In this document: positions 1 through 6,469 of the stretch, one piece after another
How positions within the stretch are numbered: the first letter of the stretch is position 1
How the letters are laid out: each line of letters starts with the position of its first letter
Program-made: the position numbers and the translations under genes
DNA from: Armatimonadota bacterium
Lineage (GTDB): Bacteria > Armatimonadota > Zipacnadia > JAUWAU01
Assembly (NCBI GenBank): GCA_030601885.1
Contig: JAUWAU010000016.1
Span: 66,817 to 130,816, forward strand
DNA length: 64,000 nt
Direction: 5' to 3'
The notes under the pieces: generated by a model
What the model saw: the letters and a program-made list of their open reading frames with translations, nothing else
Told to the model about the DNA's origin: nothing
Database searches by the model: none

Positions 1-102
1 CGAGTTGGCATCCTCACAGCGGGTGCGGCTGGGGCGAGATGAGGCGCTGTGATCGAGAACAGGAGGGGTTACGACGAGGGGCGATCAAGGCGAGACAGCC
101 GG

Positions 103-133
103 CAAGAATTAAGCAAGGTGTCCCCGGAATTCC
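103..133 (-). repeat. J-repeat copy 1 (32-bp junction repeat family), reverse orientation
   Basis: Reads CAAGAATTAAGCAAGGTGTCCCCGGAATTCC. Its reverse complement matches the unit GGAATTCCGGGGACACCATACTTAATTCTTGG at 4295..4326 with a few mismatches. Confidence 0.8.
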
Positions 134-200
134 ACCGGGCCCTCTCCTAATGAAGCAGAACCTGATGACATGCGGGCCCCCGGGATCGCCCAGCAAGGGA

Positions 201-1073
201 CTACAGAGTCCCCGGAACTCCTAGGGCGTACTGGCGTCGAAGCCACCTCCAGTACCCGATGAGCGTGAGCAGCATTGCCGCGGCAGTCACGCCATGGACG
301 CCAGCCGGGCTCCGCGGCACCAGCCCGAGCCACGCGAGGCCCAGGTACCACCGGCCAACCCAGGTCGCGGCGGTCCACAGAAGAAGGAGGCATGCGAGCT
401 GGTACGCACGGGGGAAGTCCGCGGCTCTAAGGGGGAACCAAAATTGCCGAAGCGTCATTCGCCGGCCAGTGAGGGCGGCACGGACGAACTCCGCCTCGCC
501 CGCCGGTCGAACGGCCCAGGCGGACCGGACCACCGCCCTCCGATGGCGCAGGAAGGCACCTAGAGCCAAGCACCCCCAGAGCAGGTCCGCCGCCTGCCCG
601 ACGCCCGCCAGCAAGTATACCAACCACAGCTCGTGCCCGGAATCAAGCAGTGCTCGGACGAACGGGTTCGCCTCCTGCGATAGGTCGGGCGTGTGCGCAA
701 GCGTCGCGCCCACGTCGAGCATAGACCCTCCCAACATGAAGGCACATCCGGCGCAAAAGGCGCCGCGGGGCACGTCAGCGTCGCCTAGCAACGCTATACG
801 ACGCACCAATCCCAGTAGGAGAGCTAATGAACCCCCAAGAACCCAGACGCAAGCTACCCGAAGGCCACGCAGCTCCTCGACGTATAGGACCGACGCCAGC
901 CCCAGCGAGATAATCGTGAAAGTAACGAGATACCATCGCGCGAGATGGGTCGTTCGCTCCGCCACGGATTGGCTCCGGCTCACTGCCCTTCGCACCCATT
1001 CCCAATCGCGCGAGAGCGGCTGGGCCCACAGGCGGCGGCGTGAAGGTACGGCACGCCTGCTCTCGCACCACAC
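201..1073 (-). CDS. Multi-pass membrane protein of unknown family; candidate immunity partner of Rhs fragment 1
   Basis: 290-aa ORF with several long hydrophobic segments (WYLVTFTIISLGLASVLYV, ACVWVLGGSLALLLGLV, LWLVYLLAGVGQAADLLWGCLALGAF, LACLLLLWTAATWVG). It starts 41 nt after the Rhs fragment stop on the same strand. No family recognised. Confidence 0.55.
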   Translation of the reverse strand: MWCESRRAVPSRRRLWAQPLSRDWEWVRRAVSRSQSVAERTTHLARWYLVTFTIISLGLASVLYVEELRGLRVACVWVLGGSLALLLGLVRRIALLGDADVPRGAFCAGCAFMLGGSMLDVGATLAHTPDLSQEANPFVRALLDSGHELWLVYLLAGVGQAADLLWGCLALGAFLRHRRAVVRSAWAVRPAGEAEFVRAALTGRRMTLRQFWFPLRAADFPRAYQLACLLLLWTAATWVGRWYLGLAWLGLVPRSPAGVHGVTAAAMLLTLIGYWRWLRRQYALGVPGTL

Positions 1074-1114
1074 GGACGGACCTTGCCGCGCCGACGCCCG
1101 CCCATCCGTCGCCT

Positions 1115-2245
1115 CTACCTGGGAGAGTAGTCGTAGTCGTGGCCGTCGTCGCCGCTGTCATCATCCGGGAGGGGCCCCACAGGCGGCCCACCGCCCTCGC
1201 CGTCGCCGCTCCCGTTGCACCCCCTCCAGCACCAGATCCACACCAGAATACCCGCGAGGCAGATCGCTACCCAAAAACGTCCGGCGGGATCGACGTACCG
1301 CGTCGGCGTGCCGCGTGCGTACGCGTACCAGTTCAGGCCTTGTCTGCTCGGGTCCAGCGAAACAAACCGACCGGACCCGGCGTCGTAATACCGCGCGCCC
1401 AGCAACGACAAGCCCAGATCGCCGTCCGCGTAGTAGCCGAACCCGCCCACGAACTTGCAGTGGTTCGTCGTTGAGCCGGTCGAAGTGCTGACGTTGCCCC
1501 ATGCATCGTACTTGTGGGTATCCGTGACCGTCTCCCCGGTGTTCGTTAGCGCCCGCGTGGAGCCCAGGTGGTCGAAGTGATACCAGTACAGCGTACCGCT
1601 CCGTTGCATGGCGATGAGGCCGCCCCCAGCGTTGCGGCGGTACTCAGCCGCCTCATTGCCCAATCCGTCCGTCTCAAACGCAACAGCGCCCACTCCGTAG
1701 AGGAACTTCGTGATCGTCCCGCCGAGGACCTTCTTGACACGCGTGCCATCCCCATCATACCTCATGACCGGATCGTCGCCCGTTGGGAAGTCCACGTTGA
1801 GCATCTTGTTGCGGAAGTCCCAGGTGTAGGTGGTGGTCTGCTGGTTGACCGTCTTGCTCGCCATGTTGCCGGCGTTGTCGTAGGTGTAGGTGATGTTGCC
1901 GGCGGCCGTCATCTGGTTCATGTTGTTGTACGTGTAGTTCGTATCGCTCGGCGCTACCTCATCGCGCTTCTTCGTTCGATTGCCCACGGCGTCGTAGGTG
2001 TAGCTGTAATCGTACAGGGTCTGCTGGCCGGAGTCCTCCTTCGTCTCGCGGGTCAGCCGGTATAGATCGTCATACGTGTAGTCCGTCACATCCCCGTTGT
2101 TCTCGGTCGCCGTGGTCGGATTCCCCAGCTTGTCCTGCTCGTAACTGATGCTCAGGAAGGTGGAGTTGTCGCTCTTCTTGTGCGTGATGGCCGTCAGCCA
2201 GTTGCGCGTGCTGTAAGTGTACAATGTATATGTCCCGTTTGGCAC
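1115..2245 (-). CDS. Rhs/YD-repeat protein, C-terminal fragment only (orphan Rhs tip 1)
   Basis: YD repeats are present (YTYDDLYRL, YSYTYDAVGN, YTYDNAGN, YTWDFRNK). The Rhs-associated core end is present (HFDHLGSTRALT, GARYYDAGSGRFVSLDP, NWYAYARGTPTRYVDPAGR), followed by a 53-aa tip. The ORF is only 376 aa with a GTG start, so the large N-terminal Rhs shell is missing. Confidence 0.85.
   Translation of the reverse strand: MPNGTYTLYTYSTRNWLTAITHKKSDNSTFLSISYEQDKLGNPTTATENNGDVTDYTYDDLYRLTRETKEDSGQQTLYDYSYTYDAVGNRTKKRDEVAPSDTNYTYNNMNQMTAAGNITYTYDNAGNMASKTVNQQTTTYTWDFRNKMLNVDFPTGDDPVMRYDGDGTRVKKVLGGTITKFLYGVGAVAFETDGLGNEAAEYRRNAGGGLIAMQRSGTLYWYHFDHLGSTRALTNTGETVTDTHKYDAWGNVSTSTGSTTNHCKFVGGFGYYADGDLGLSLLGARYYDAGSGRFVSLDPSRQGLNWYAYARGTPTRYVDPAGRFWVAICLAGILVWIWCWRGCNGSGDGEGGGPPVGPLPDDDSGDDGHDYDYSPR
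1799..2041. repeat. Highly similar Rhs core segment shared with 4051..4293
   Basis: Long runs of identical bases are shared with the second copy, e.g. GAGCATCTTGTTGCGGAAGTCCCAGGTGTAGGTGGTGGTCTGCTGGTT and CGTCATCTGGTTCATGTTGTTGTACGTGTAGTTCGTATCGCT. The offset between copies is 2252 bp. Confidence 0.85.
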
Positions 2246-2530
2246 GTCTAGCCGAAAGGCAGGAAACAGGGTCGAGGGAAAAGAGAGAAGGCGGCATCAA
2301 CAGGGCCGTCCCCGGCGGGGGCGATGGGCTGAGGTGAGGCATCCGGTGGGGCAGGTGCTGTGAAATGCTTGGTCGCGCCCGACCGCGGACCTCTTAGCCT
2401 GAGATGGAAAAAGCTCGTTCGGCACCCACCGGCACCCGTGCCGCCAGGGGGGCACCATAGACCGCTGCCGACGGGGAATCTCCTTTTTCCCCAGAGGCTG
2501 TCGACATGGGCAGCCCCACAACTACCTATC

Positions 2531-2550
2531 ATGAATGTCCCCGGAATTCC
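2531..2550 (-). repeat. J-repeat copy 2 (partial), reverse orientation
   Basis: Reads ATGAATGTCCCCGGAATTCC and contains the core GTCCCCGGAATTCC of the J-repeat. It lies 33 nt downstream of the stop of membrane-protein gene 2583..3176, between that gene and Rhs fragment 1. Confidence 0.6.
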
Positions 2551-2582
2551 GACTTGACCGGCGTGTCCCCCACAACCCGTCG

Positions 2583-3176
2583 TCATCCCCGAGTGACCGC
2601 CCGGTACACCGCCGCCAAGCCGGTGGCGCCCGCCAGCAGCAGAGCGACCGCGAACGCGGCCCTCGTGAAAGGAGGCCCTTGGGCGAGCGCCTGTGCCTGC
2701 CGGGCCATGACCGGTGCGACCCACGCATACGCGAGGGCGGCCGTCACGCAGAAGGCCCCCACCGCTAGCCACCATATACGCCTCGGCACGCCCGCACTGA
2801 GCTCCCGGCCCACGGGGCGGCCGCCCCGCCGGCGCTGCCCGGCCAGCGAGGCCCCCAATCCCGCGAGGGCCACCACAGCCAGAGCGCCAGGTGGGCAGTG
2901 GGGCCACCAGGCAAAAAACGCGCACCACAACCCCAGCAGAATGCCAGCCCAGCGCTGCCAGGAGTTGAGTCGGGTGATTCCCACGGCCATCGCCACACAC
3001 ACAAGCGAGAGCGTGACCGCCAGCCAGTGGGTGTGCTGATCGGCCGGGAAGGGGCCTCTGGGCTGTTGTCCGCTGAGTGCTGAAACGAGGGCTCGGGCAC
3101 ACAGTCCCACCAACACCACGGCGGCAACGACGCGGCTGAACTGCGGCAGGGCCACCCGACCCAATGGTCTCTTCAT
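2583..3176 (-). CDS. Multi-pass membrane protein of unknown family; candidate immunity partner of Rhs fragment 2
   Basis: Five or six hydrophobic segments are present (VVAAVVLVGLCARALV, WLAVTLSLVCVAMAVGI, WAGILLGLWCAFFAWW, IWWLAVGAFCVTAALAYAWV, AAFAVALLLAGATGLAAVY). An ATG at 3176 is preceded by GGGGAGG. The track ORF starts 9 nt earlier at a TTG. The gene lies about 30 nt downstream of the Rhs fragment 2 stop. Confidence 0.6.
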   Translation of the reverse strand: MKRPLGRVALPQFSRVVAAVVLVGLCARALVSALSGQQPRGPFPADQHTHWLAVTLSLVCVAMAVGITRLNSWQRWAGILLGLWCAFFAWWPHCPPGALAVVALAGLGASLAGQRRRGGRPVGRELSAGVPRRIWWLAVGAFCVTAALAYAWVAPVMARQAQALAQGPPFTRAAFAVALLLAGATGLAAVYRAVTRG

Positions 3177-3207
3177 GGAGCCCAACCTCCCCTCGCTCTA
3201 GCGGGCC

Positions 3208-4294
3208 CTACGCACCGTACTCCAACCAGCACACGCCATAGCATGCCGCCCAGGCTACGCTGCACGCTGCGAGGCAGCGCCCGAGCGCTTGCACCGCCAG
3301 CTGGTAACAGACGTACATGCATCCACCGCAAAGCGGGGGCGTGATGATGCATACGATGGCGCAACTCACAACGCACGCCGCCACCAGGGAACCGAAGACC
3401 ACGAGGCAGAGGGCCGCGCACCCGGCCATGCTCGCGTCGCAGTCGTCGAGGCAGCACTGCAGCGGGGTCCGGCCCTGCAAGCCCGTCGGATCCAGATGAC
3501 CGAGCGGGCTCGCCATGGCATACAGGTACAGATTGGCCCCCACGTGCAGCGGGTCCACGGAGACGAAGCGGCCTGCCTCGCGTGAGTACCACCTCCCCTG
3601 CAGCAGGAGGAGCCCAACGTCAGGGTCGGTGTAGTACCCCAGCGCTCCAACGAACTTGAAGGGGTTGGCGGTCGAGCCGCTCGAGGCAGTACCCTCGCCC
3701 CAGGCGTCGTACTTGTAGGTGTCTGTGACCGTCTCGCTCGCGTTCGTCAGGGCGCGCGTGGACCCGAGATGATCGAAGTGGTAGTAGCTCATGGTGCCGC
3801 CGCGCTTCATCGAGATGAGCTCCCCGCCCGACGAGCGCCGATATTCTCCGGTCTTCGATCCCTGCCCGTCCGTCTCGAACAGCAGCGGCTGAACCCCAAA
3901 GAGTATCCCGTCCGAGTTAGGCGGACGCACGGCGAACTCGGCCTGACCATACAGGTATCTGGTAACCGTCGCGCCCATCTTCTTGTAGACCCTCAGCCCG
4001 TCACCCTCGTACCGCATCACCGGGTCATCGCCGCTCGGGAAATCCACTTTGAGCATCTTGTTGCGGAAGTCCCAGGTGTAGGTGGTGGTCTGCTGGTTCA
4101 CCACTTTAGTCAGCATGTTGCCGGCGTCATCATACGTGTAGGTGATGTTGCCGGCAGCCGTCATCTGGTTCATGTTGTTGTACGTGTAGTTCGTATCGCT
4201 CTGCGCGACCTCATCGCGCTTCTTCGTGCGGTTGCCCACGGCGTCGTACGTGTAGCTGTAATCGTAGAGCGTCTGCTGCCCGGAGTCCTCCTTC
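3208..4294 (-). pseudogene. 5'-truncated Rhs/YD-repeat fragment (orphan Rhs tip 2)
   Basis: Rhs homology to fragment 1 begins exactly at KEDSGQQTLYDYSYTYDAVGN, immediately after J-repeat copy 3. The core end is GRWYSREAGRFVSVDP ... PLGHLDPTGL, followed by an 89-aa Cys-rich hydrophobic tip. The track ORF extension 4295..4476 reads through the repeat and overlaps the hepT gene in another frame. No credible start codon exists at the homology boundary. Confidence 0.8.
4051..4293. repeat. Highly similar Rhs core segment shared with 1799..2041
   Basis: Second copy of the segment described for 1799..2041. Confidence 0.85.
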
Positions 4295-4326
4295 GGAATT
4301 CCGGGGACACCATACTTAATTCTTGG
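4295..4326 (+). repeat. J-repeat copy 3, forward orientation
   Basis: Reads GGAATTCCGGGGACACCATACTTAATTCTTGG. It abuts the point where Rhs fragment 2 is truncated. Confidence 0.85.
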
Positions 4327-4379
4327 GTCGTGGCTTCCGCGGGCGGCGAACGCGTGGGATATTCTCTCGGACCGGGTAC

Positions 4380-4838
4380 TCACGGCTCTTCGCCCTCCAA
4401 GAAGACCTTGAGCTCTGTCTTGAGTCGCTCCAGCACGTCTTCCGAGCGAAGGACCAGGTCGGCCATTTTCGTCCACTGCAGCTCAAATGTGTAGGCATGG
4501 CGAAAGACGTGCCTGAACTGCATGTACTTGCCGAGCTGCGCACAGAGATCTCCGGATATGGCGGCTGGACGCTCAGCGAACGGCTTGGCCATCCGCAAGA
4601 GCAGATCAGCGTGCCATCGCTCTCCTGCAGGGAGTGAGGCGTCTATCTCGAGAGCTATTCGCTTGAATATGTTCTCAATGCCGGTATAGAGCGCGTGGAG
4701 AAATGCCGAAAGGGCCGACAGTTCAATGCTGTCCGGCTCCACGCTGCGCACTTTCACCAGCAGAGGCCGGTGGGTCTCAGCCAGACGTTGCAGAAGGGCG
4801 AGTTCAAGATTCACCTTCTCCCCAGTTTCAGGCCACAC
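4380..4838 (-). CDS. hepT: HEPN-domain toxin (HepT-like / nucleotidyltransferase substrate-binding family)
   Basis: 152 aa. It carries the Rx4H HEPN motif in FRHVFRHAY. It overlaps the upstream minimal nucleotidyltransferase gene by 11 nt, the classic MNT/HEPN arrangement. Confidence 0.75.
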   Translation of the reverse strand: MWPETGEKVNLELALLQRLAETHRPLLVKVRSVEPDSIELSALSAFLHALYTGIENIFKRIALEIDASLPAGERWHADLLLRMAKPFAERPAAISGDLCAQLGKYMQFRHVFRHAYTFELQWTKMADLVLRSEDVLERLKTELKVFLEGEEP

Positions 4839-5115
4839 GCCTCAGTTCGCCTTTCTTCTCCAAGTACTCGGTAAACGGATTGCGCTCGTCCAGGTCAATC
4901 AGATCGAAGGGCCTGGAGATGGCGAGAGCAGCCCTGCTCATGGCGTCGAAGAATCGTTCGGGCGGCAGCCCTCGCACAGCGAGGTCGAGGTCGGAGCTTG
5001 GCCCTTGCGCCCCGCGGCTGGCAGAGCCGAACACGAACACCTCCCGGGCACCGGCCTCCCGAAGAATTCCCGCCGCCATCTCGATGTCATGCTGTAGGGT
5101 ATTGACTGTGGTCAT
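4828..5115 (-). CDS. mntA: Minimal nucleotidyltransferase antitoxin (MntA-like)
   Basis: 95 aa. It carries the polymerase-beta-type NTase signature FVFGSASRGAQGPSSDLDLAV (GS...RG...DxD). It is translationally coupled to the HEPN gene. Confidence 0.8.
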   Translation of the reverse strand: MTTVNTLQHDIEMAAGILREAGAREVFVFGSASRGAQGPSSDLDLAVRGLPPERFFDAMSRAALAISRPFDLIDLDERNPFTEYLEKKGELRRVA

Positions 5116-5193
5116 CGCTGCACTCCTGAACGCTGTCTCATTGTATCACATTCTGCACCCACCGTGAATTCGGCGTCAATTCCTGAAATCCGG

Positions 5194-5225
5194 GGAATTC
5201 CGAGGACACCATACTCAATTCTTGC
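5194..5225 (+). repeat. J-repeat copy 4, forward orientation
   Basis: Reads GGAATTCCGAGGACACCATACTCAATTCTTGC, two or three mismatches from copy 3. It lies 79 nt upstream of the mntA start. Confidence 0.8.
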
Positions 5226-5428
5226 TCTGTGCCTTCTTGCGTAGGCCCTTGGACGATTCCGCCGACACAACACTCATTCTCTGCCCCCCAGCAACAACGC
5301 CCCGCCGCTCCGCCACGCTGAGCGTCCGGGCTGGCTGGCCGCGGCCGAGAAGGAGGTGTCAGGTGGTGGCAAGTCCAAGAAGCCCGGCACCGGGATTCGC
5401 ACAAGACGCATGAAGGGAGGAATGAGGC

Positions 5429-6469
5429 ATGCCGGATCGGAAGCCCGGCAAGACGGGCCGTCGCGATTTCCTCAAACGCGTTGGGGCGGGCGCGGTCATC
5501 GGCGCCGCCGGTACGGGGCTCGGCCCCACGGCCGGAGCGGCGCTGGCGACGTCGAAAGCCCCGAGTGGCAAGGAGAACATCGAAGACCGCCGTCTGGCAG
5601 AGACGAGCTCAAAGGAGGCGCCGGCTATGAGAATCGGCGTGAATCTGCTGCTTTGGTCAGCCGCAATGGGGAAAGAATCCCTGGGCCTCATTGAGAAGGT
5701 GGCTCGGTTCGGTTTCGACGGAGTGGAGATCTTCATCGACGAGCCCGCCAACATCGACCGCCGGGCCATCAAGAAAGTGGTGGATGATAACGGGCTGGGC
5801 ATCACGTGCTGCTCCATTGTTGGCCCGGACAGGCACCTGATAAGCGACGATCGGAAGATCCGCCGGAACGCGAGAGATTACCTCAAGGCTGCGGTCGAGG
5901 TCTCCCACGACGTCGGCAGCTCCATCTTCTGCGGCCCGCTGTATGCCGGAGTCGGTGTGCTTGTCGGCCGTCCGCGCACCGAGGAGGAATGGGGCCGGGC
6001 GGTCGAGGGACTGTCGGAGGTGGCCAAGGACGCCGAGGCGGCCGGTGTAACGCTATGCCTGGAGCCCCTCAACCGGTTCGAGACATACTTCGTCAACATC
6101 GTGGAGGACGCGGTGAAACTGGCGAAAGACGTGGACAGTCCCAACGTCAAGGTAATGGGCGATACCTTCCACATGAATATCGAGGAGAAGAACCTCCGTC
6201 AACCCCTCGTTGCGGCCGGGGACCTGCTTCACCATATGCATTGCTGCGGGAACGACCGAGGCACGCCGGGGGCAGGACACGTGGACTGGGACGACGTTTT
6301 TGCAGCCCTCCGCGATGTCGGCTACGATGGGTGGCTGGTGATCGAGTCCTTTGTGCTGGGCAACGAGGCCATTGCCAAAGCCGCCGCCATCTGGCGCGAT
6401 ATCGCCCCCTCTGGGGATGACTTGGCAAGGGACGGCCTCGCGTTTCTCAGGAGGATGTCCGCGGCGTAG
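5429..6469 (+). CDS. TAT-exported sugar phosphate isomerase/epimerase (xylose isomerase-like TIM barrel)
   Basis: A GGGAGGA RBS precedes the start. The twin-arginine signal is GRRDFLKRVGAGAVIGAAG. Family-typical blocks are present (MRIGVNLLLWS, FGFDGVEIF, LCLEPLNRFE, GDTFHMNIEE, HMHCCGNDRG). Confidence 0.8.
   Translation: MPDRKPGKTGRRDFLKRVGAGAVIGAAGTGLGPTAGAALATSKAPSGKENIEDRRLAETSSKEAPAMRIGVNLLLWSAAMGKESLGLIEKVARFGFDGVEIFIDEPANIDRRAIKKVVDDNGLGITCCSIVGPDRHLISDDRKIRRNARDYLKAAVEVSHDVGSSIFCGPLYAGVGVLVGRPRTEEEWGRAVEGLSEVAKDAEAAGVTLCLEPLNRFETYFVNIVEDAVKLAKDVDSPNVKVMGDTFHMNIEEKNLRQPLVAAGDLLHHMHCCGNDRGTPGAGHVDWDDVFAALRDVGYDGWLVIESFVLGNEAIAKAAAIWRDIAPSGDDLARDGLAFLRRMSAA

Follow-up and report, generated by a model that had tools for sequence, protein, structure and literature searches.

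The known payloads of Rhs proteins are overwhelmingly soluble enzymes, with Tse5 as the main studied pore-forming exception. Here we analyse a locus at the start of a 64,000-nucleotide stretch of DNA from an Armatimonadota bacterium (assembly GCA_030601885.1, contig JAUWAU010000016.1, positions 66,817 to 130,816), hereafter the window, in which two orphan Rhs C-terminal fragments end in very short tips of membrane type (tips 1 and 2), each followed by a gene for a membrane protein (mem1 and mem2). In Pseudomonas aeruginosa Tse5 (RhsP1), the C-terminal toxin Tse5-CT has 149 amino acids (aa) and transmembrane helices and forms pores, and for its immunity protein, Tsi5, two transmembrane regions are predicted (PMC9637101, PMC10684867); the self-cleavage site of Tse5 is DPxGL-(18)-DPxGL (PMC9637101). 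The cassettes in the window resemble this pair in their DPxG-(18)-DPxG motif, in a non-enzymatic, hydrophobic or amphipathic helical tip and in an integral membrane immunity protein, the last two being predictions here. Unlike Tse5, which is delivered by a type VI secretion system (T6SS), they occur in a genome in which we found no T6SS sheath gene (TssC). Furthermore, Tse5-CT has no sequence relation to either tip, and we found no mention in the literature of a cysteine ladder in it, such as the one described below for tip 2.

The second close comparison is with the orphan rhs-CT/rhsI modules of enterobacteria (Poole et al. 2011, PMC3150448; Koskiniemi et al. 2014, PMC3967940). As in those modules, a 5'-truncated fragment with a conserved core and a divergent tip is followed by a small downstream gene, and it is the 5' end that shows the highest identity, a stretch usable for recombination into a main rhs gene. 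In contrast to them, there is no main rhs gene upstream or in the assembly, the borders are formed by repeats resembling repetitive extragenic palindromic (REP) sequences, the tips are tiny membrane-type peptides and the role of immunity protein would fall to polytopic membrane proteins. The locus is thus a group of displaced orphan Rhs C-terminal cassettes, of a known kind and with unusual payloads, and its initial annotation as the 3' end of an Rhs core joined to a polymorphic tip and a downstream gene was confirmed. Each cassette comprises the last 270–320 residues of an Rhs/YD shell with its aspartyl self-cleavage motif, the tip and a putatively cognate membrane gene, and the cassettes sit in an accessory stretch, rich in REP sequences and transposases, of a genome of PVC type. 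The host assembly is a metagenome-assembled genome (MAG) of 6.8 Mb in 90 contigs, 95% complete and with 6% estimated contamination.

Rhs core fragments and their tips

Both fragments are encoded on the minus strand, within open reading frames (ORFs) at 1115-2245 (376 aa) and 3208-4476. The core of fragment 1 (1280-2245) consists of 322 aa of Rhs/YD core ending in DPSRQGL-(18)-DPAG, and that of fragment 2 (3481-4294) of 271 aa from KEDSGQQ to HLDPTG (TIGR03696, E-value 1.6e-14). The two share 65% identity over 282 aa from KEDSGQQTLY, a stretch that includes the near-identical segment KEDSGQQTLYDYSYTYDAVGNRTKKRDEVA. Identity is 100% over the 30 residues that follow KEDSGQQ and declines to ~50% as the core ends; beyond DPxG the tips are unrelated, in agreement with the divergence noted initially. 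Both fragments match the Pfam families RHS_repeat (PF05593; E-values 2e-10 for fragment 1 and 2.5e-4 for fragment 2) and RHS, as well as TIGR01643. For the Rhs-associated core model TIGR03696 (cut-off 32.5 bits), the scores are 58.6 bits in fragment 1 and 54.1 bits in fragment 2; the matches stop precisely at DPAG and DPTG, respectively, and that in fragment 1 covers residues 246-322. The putative self-cleavage motifs, as read from the sequence, are SLDPSRQGL-18-DPAGR in fragment 1 and SVDPLHVGA-18-DPTGL in fragment 2, and in both fragments a variable tip follows the paired motif.

In a 1377-aa Rhs protein from a genome of the same class, with 17 RHS repeats and a signal-peptide-like N-terminus, the part that aligns with fragment 1 is residues 900-1222, so that approximately 900 residues of the shell are missing; such N-termini are also seen in related full-length Rhs proteins of the lineage. 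Both fragments fall well short of a complete shell, which would have ca. 1,200–1,400 aa and an N-terminal domain for secretion or delivery, and the genome contains nothing longer, which extends to the whole assembly the earlier remark that the window holds no shell and no full-length rhs. The true Rhs homology of fragment 2 begins at 4294, directly against a copy of a dispersed repeat, designated J (4295-4337, minus strand), that abuts its 5' truncation point, and the ORF stretch upstream of 4294 has a GC content at third codon positions (GC3) of 0.45, as expected of non-coding DNA. The GC3 of tip 1 (0.83) and of tip 2 (0.84), on the other hand, matches that of the core, indicating that the reading frames of the tips are truly coding. 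We also considered the stretch PNGTYTLYTYS as the end of an insertion sequence (IS), and rejected this because relatives align through it as an ordinary YD repeat. Pfam and NCBIfam gave no matches for either tip.

Tip 2 (3211-3480, minus strand; stop codon 3208-3210) is, as first described, a hydrophobic and cysteine-rich segment of 89–90 aa (90 in these coordinates), although it contains 15 cysteines and not about 17. Its AlphaFold2 model, obtained from the single sequence with a mean predicted local distance difference test (pLDDT) score of 92, shows two 41-residue helices (9-49 and 51-91) joined at a Pro-Pro, a helix-loop-helix in whose two arms the CX3C-type motifs mirror each other in the model. 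In a numbering that begins at the P of DPTG, the cysteines occupy positions 12, 13, 17, 24, 28, 39, 43 and 47 in the first arm and 54, 57, 61, 72, 76, 83 and 87 in the second. The positions of the pairs 13+87, 17+83, 24+76, 28+72, 39+61 and 43+57 each add up to 100, and those of 47+54 to 101; this constancy means that each arm 1 cysteine of these pairs faces an arm 2 cysteine across the turn, and the pattern was equalled in only 3 of 20,000 shuffles (P 1.5e-4). Likewise, 12 of the 14 gaps between consecutive cysteines are of 4, 7 or 11 residues (P < 2e-4), which places the cysteines on one helical face. There are no charged residues between positions 20 and 70, and this uncharged stretch of ca. 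50 residues, centred on the turn and read directly from the sequence, is of sufficient length to form a transmembrane hairpin whose ends lie on the same side. The seven mirrored pairs could ladder the two helices, either as disulfides in an oxidising envelope or as a small-xxx-small zipper in the membrane.

We found no homologues of tip 2 in 79 genomes of the class, and among 1.84 billion representative proteins it matched only itself, and hence not Tse5-CT. Foldseek comparison with the PDB retrieved only non-significant, generic helical hairpins, the nearest in shape being ATP-synthase c-subunit hairpins and the hydrophobic heads of the pore-forming toxins AhlB and SmhB. Plant alpha-hairpinins (CX3C-Xn-CX3C; PMC7191063, PMC11591084) and glycocins with nested disulfides (PMC12139839) share with tip 2 the helix-loop-helix and mirror-facing cysteines one turn apart, an arrangement that would permit nested cross-links, but these peptides have two or three rungs, a soluble or amphipathic character and a free, secreted form, whereas tip 2 has seven potential rungs with putative disulfides, 41-residue arms, an uncharged core of 50 residues and a fusion to an Rhs shell. 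We found no description of a cysteine-laddered hydrophobic hairpin in the literature.

Mirrored cysteines do occur in other Rhs tips of the class, with five pairs about a PFP turn in the tip L036a (P 0.011) and three pairs in L033, and the L042 tip shows a strong helical periodicity of its cysteines. A phylum-wide sample of 26 tips, mostly soluble domains of 100–230 aa, contained no further clear mirrored-cysteine hairpin, the best candidate being L086 (P 0.11). Cysteine-rich hydrophobic tips were located in L036 (G006:C58, from 2262 onward), L033 (G045:C41), L042 (G058:C627) and L086 (G106:C14), several of them followed by proteins with 2–7 transmembrane segments. Kinship of tip 2 with other cysteine-rich tips was suggested by a single weak match (the L022 tip, z 4.7); the gene downstream of the latter is unrelated to mem2, so we do not claim homology.

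Tip 1 (1118-1279, minus strand; stop codon 1115-1117) has 54 aa counted from the R after DPAG, or 53 after DPAGR, and is built as reported initially, with one hydrophobic helix (FWVAICLAGILVWIWCW) followed by RGC and an acidic tail rich in Gly, Pro and Asp. In size it resembles a bacteriocin, and its one helix would be transmembrane. A word search of 5.8 billion proteins retrieved for this region only itself, and no relatives were seen beyond a sister strain (L019), in which the architecture is kept.

Membrane proteins mem1 and mem2 and the varying unit

The putative immunity partner of tip 2, mem2 (2583-3176, minus strand), is a 197-aa membrane protein with 5–6 hydrophobic segments. It starts 31 nucleotides (nt) past the stop codon of tip 2, preceded by a ribosome-binding site (GAGGGGAGG), and thus falls within the distance of 20–40 nt first given for both cassettes. 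For mem1 (201-965, minus strand), a 254-aa helical membrane protein and the putative immunity partner of tip 1, a gap of about 40 nt applies only to the longest ORF, from GTG 1073; the start conserved in its family is GTG 965, 149 nt from the tip.

No Pfam or NCBIfam family was found for mem2, and its database matches are near-identical sequences only. The same genome contains, nevertheless, a single diverged paralogue (C80:14686-15297; 40% identity, E-value 2e-20), which indicates that mem2 belongs to a real protein family. This paralogue lies behind a J repeat, without a tip upstream, and resembles an immunity-only cassette. The order in that region (G000:C80:14445-15846) is an N-terminal fragment of an IS21-like IstA, a 12-aa Rhs stub (VPNGTYATYTYS), the J repeat and the mem2 paralogue, and the element of ~240 nt that comes next is the same as that after mem2 in the window (2316-2551).

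In its AlphaFold2 model, mem1 is all-helical, with about six long helices (pLDDT 79, predicted template modelling score 0.76). Foldseek found no fold match in the PDB (best E-value 0.37), and Pfam and NCBIfam provided no family, with DUF5658 reached only at an E-value of 0.19. It nonetheless belongs to a rare, uncharacterised family, with nine metagenome homologues, defined by the invariant motifs HTPDLxxExNPxxRALLDSGH, LRHR and RWYLGLxW, of which mem1 keeps all invariant residues. Members without an Rhs neighbour occur in Armatimonadota, Alcaligenaceae, Pseudoxanthomonas, Stenotrophomonas and Legionellales. The concern that the membrane genes might be housekeeping genes of genomes lacking Rhs is therefore only partly allayed, since the mem1 family is not a housekeeping one, yet neither is it specific to Rhs.

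At 11 of 26 other loci (4 of 6 from genomes and 7 of 20 from metagenomes), a small peptide ORF lies directly upstream of the mem1-family gene. These peptides take the form MREL[ST]..E....GG, a hydrophobic helix of ~14 residues, [SG]GC[AS]T and a basic tail, and match the class IIb bacteriocin model TIGR03949 with E-values of 8e-4 to 0.04, below its cut-off. Matches to lipoprotein and entericidin models are weaker, and there is a lipobox-like motif, L-[SG]-G-C, so that the peptides could instead be tiny entericidin-type lipoproteins. The two-gene modules, from gamma-proteobacteria and metagenomes, were found at L025 (5590-5730), L026, L027 (380-544), L028, L061, L062, L064 and L067-L070. Pairs of a class II bacteriocin with a double-glycine (GG) leader and a membrane immunity protein match tip 1 and mem1 in gene order and in the architecture of the peptide, and differ in that tip 1 comes as an Rhs C-terminus, after the cleavage motif, without a GG leader. 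The repeated occurrence of the mem1 family beside single-helix peptides, and the same architecture in tip 1, support a toxin/immunity or peptide/partner relationship independently of the Rhs context. This association also gives a testable function to a family of uncharacterised membrane proteins.

Elsewhere in the phylum, Rhs cores are very common (264 of 401 genomes) and in many cases form arrays of short fragments, whereas the genomes of the same genus and of the same order had no Rhs matches, indicating that the locus is accessory. In the host assembly, Rhs sequences were found in five places only, namely fragments 1 and 2, a third orphan fragment (C25), a gene for a mini-YD protein (C20) and a truncated copy of the latter. 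The final DPxG motif is absent from the third orphan (G000:C25:14867-17751; 77% identity with fragment 1), which has a cysteine-rich tip with HELVH, followed by a gene for a 371-aa lipoprotein-like protein with two repeats. It shares with the locus in the window (C61) the core and a 537-nt flank (93% identical) that starts at the J repeat, just beyond 133, and both the tip and the downstream gene differ between these common ends. The unit that varies is thus the tip plus the next gene, which change together, as expected for toxin/immunity pairs. We rejected the possibility that C25 is an allelic copy from a contaminating strain, because homology is confined to the core and the 537-nt flank. 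The mini-YD gene (G000:C20:188972-194016) encodes an intact protein of ~600 aa with a signal peptide, an Rhs core and a 200-aa tip opening with a transmembrane helix; J repeats lie nearby, and the truncated second copy is 3.5 kb downstream.

We also surveyed 24 motifs in the class, including those of the host genome and the sister strain. Most were followed by an ORF with at least one predicted transmembrane segment, and the tips were generally rich in cysteine (5–12%), which fits toxins acting in the envelope.

Possible membrane toxins, relics or entry modules

On balance, we favour the view that the tips act, or once acted, as small membrane toxins and that their immunity partners reside in the membrane; the pairs would work like Tse5-CT and Tsi5, to which they are unrelated. 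By prediction, from hydropathy, the AlphaFold2 models and the uncharged stretch of tip 2, the locus combines hydrophobic transmembrane helices in the tips with membrane-embedded putative immunity proteins. This agrees with the pairing of membrane toxins and membrane immunity proteins proposed in the initial annotation, in that the tips are of membrane type and polytopic membrane proteins lie downstream, from which we infer toxicity and immunity. The tips would be small membrane-active peptides and not enzymes; tip 2 would insert in the cytoplasmic membrane of the target as a transmembrane hairpin and disrupt it, by forming a pore or by depolarisation, as does Tse5-CT; and mem1 and mem2 would act as immunity proteins within the membrane. 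If the tips are active, Rhs cages can carry peptide-sized membrane toxins of 54–90 aa, tip 2 defines a simple, designable fold that is predicted confidently from a single sequence, and the mem1 family is an example of one immunity family serving two delivery systems. A broader proposal, which we consider possible and put forward tentatively, is that the Rhs shells of this PVC lineage, whose export would not need a T6SS, serve to deliver membrane peptides resembling bacteriocins, among them transmembrane alpha-hairpins of the tip 2 type zipped by up to seven mirrored cysteine pairs, with analogues in other genera of the class. Toxin/immunity pairs would then move between delivery systems, the mem1 family serving a GG-leader peptide in gamma-proteobacteria and an Rhs tip here.

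Several observations weigh against an active toxin/immunity role. A full-length rhs gene sharing the core, for which the initial annotation had proposed to look elsewhere in the genome, was not found in the 90-contig assembly using as queries the fragment, RHS_repeat, TIGR03696 and the full-length relative; MAGs can miss repeated genes, and this absence holds for the assembly, which may be incomplete. The cassettes therefore do not lie downstream of such a gene, and the only intact YD gene, on C20, is 39% identical at the protein level, leaving no recipient for them at the DNA level. Neither fragment has a convincing translation start or promoter of its own. Many loci of the mem1 family have neither a peptide nor Rhs upstream, and the similarity of tip 1 to the GG-leader peptides was not significant (P 0.07–0.3, with one comparison at 0.007). 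The data on selection, from the comparison of two strains (the window versus L019 and L049), point the same way. The tips and membrane genes, pooled, differ by 37.5 non-synonymous and 5.5 synonymous changes (pN/pS ~2.5), which rules out an omega of up to 0.5 (P 6e-5) and even slightly exceeds the neutral expectation (P 0.035). In addition, a TGG>TAG change (W80*) in tip 2 of the sister strain removes its last 14 residues and two cysteine rungs.

Taken individually, tip 1 differs by 14.5 non-synonymous versus 1.5 synonymous changes and mem1 by 16 versus 4, and all seven changes in tip 2 plus mem2 alter the protein; the Rhs core of fragment 1, by comparison, has a dN/dS of 0.24. Such an excess of non-synonymous changes would be expected both of silent cassettes under relaxed selection and of genes under diversifying selection. 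Separately, the substitutions between strains (201-4039 versus L019 and L049) are rich in G<>C transversions, with 11 of 20 in mem1, 8 of 14 in cassette 2 and 13 of 55 in the Rhs core.

The main rival explanation, which we consider unlikely, is that the cassettes are pure relics, the decaying debris of a lost rhs locus, with degenerate or truncated tips whose toxin domains have been deleted and membrane genes that are themselves decaying or are unrelated passengers. The lack of a full-length rhs in the genome and of Rhs matches in the genomes of the same genus and order agrees with it, as do the 5' truncations at a mobile repeat, the high pN/pS and the nonsense mutation, which favours some decay. 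The tips, of 54 and 90 aa, are moreover unusually short for the phylum. However, tip 2 is too ordered for debris, with its seven mirrored cysteine pairs about a Pro-Pro turn, high-scoring model and core-like GC3; both membrane ORFs are intact in the two strains, with the invariant residues of mem1 retained; and the arms races of toxin/immunity systems also yield an excess of non-synonymous changes. As regards their present state, the cassettes are most likely a silent reserve or decaying copies. Even as relics, they would illustrate the ways in which polymorphic-toxin cassettes are broken up and shuffled by REP-type repeats and recombination.

A third explanation, which we judge improbable, is that the hydrophobic segments are modules for membrane entry or anchoring, and that a soluble toxin domain was lost from both cassettes with only the entry module surviving. 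It draws on the related tips C20 (200 aa), L038, L036a, L033, L087, L089 and L094, which open with one or two hydrophobic helices or a cysteine hairpin and run into a larger soluble domain, such that our short tips could be truncated; this is also a point against their being complete toxins. Nevertheless, in tip 2 the last cysteine pairs with the first of the mirrored set, and the hairpin would therefore be complete and not cut. For tip 1, we found no hidden second helix or continuation in the other reading frames or in the 149-nt gap. Further, Tse5-CT is a precedent for an Rhs tip that is hydrophobic throughout and is itself the toxin (PMC9637101).

Lastly, an assembly chimera or a chance ORF extension, conceivable in GC-rich DNA that yields long spurious ORFs and in a MAG with some contamination, is largely refuted and scarcely credible, because both core-tip-membrane junctions are reproduced in an independent assembly of a second strain (Logan, SRR25383458; L019 with 93.6% and L049 with 99.1% nucleotide identity), the codon-position GC of the tips equals that of the core, the cysteine pattern is non-random, and mem1 and mem2 both have diverged homologues.

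Repeats and neighbouring genes

On the minus strand, from 5' to 3', the order is MntA, HepT, a J repeat, fragment 2 with tip 2, mem2, a spacer, fragment 1 with tip 1, mem1 and an inverted J repeat. The genes upstream of the cassettes are those for MntA and HepT together with sugar-metabolism genes, and not a full-length rhs. MntA (4828-5115, minus strand) and its toxin-antitoxin partner HepT (4380-4838, minus strand), which together span 4380-5115, are directly upstream of Rhs fragment 2. Their promoter, that of MntA, is the sole sigma-70-like promoter within 1-5400, and the membrane genes may be transcribed by read-through from it; an Rfam scan of positions 1-6000 of the window gave no match. 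At 4380-4383 (GTGA), the stop codon of HepT overlaps a GTG (4383) that opens a 391-aa ORF (gene call P0012), which crosses the J repeat and runs into fragment 2, and translational coupling from HepT into this ORF is conceivable. The host genome also contains 17 DUF1559-type genes, a feature indicative of the PVC group.

The J repeat (core GGTGTCCCCGGAATTCC) has 94 copies in the genome, compared with 1 in the control. Those in the window are at 103-133 (plus strand, just downstream of mem1 and inverted with respect to the copy at 4295-4325), ~2540-2556 (a J-like core), 4295-4337 and 5194-5236, bordering the Rhs cassettes and the MntA/HepT pair. Elsewhere, J flanks multi-copy, frameshifted IS200-like Y1 transposase genes with the motif YCLMPNHVHLI (PF01797, E-value 1.2e-5; for example, G000:C70:3500-4700, L050). 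In its copy number and its association with these genes, J behaves like a system of REP sequences and REP-associated tyrosine transposases (RAYTs).

The non-coding spacer between the cassettes (2257-2556, minus strand) is filled with repeats, comprising the J-like core, the dispersed element of ~240 nt and a 39-nt CT-rich piece (2257-2295), with the ORF of fragment 1 beginning 11 nt downstream. This 39-nt piece is present in all copies of the Y1 transposase gene, between the codons for PGV and AEWCE, and also occurs at several contig ends.

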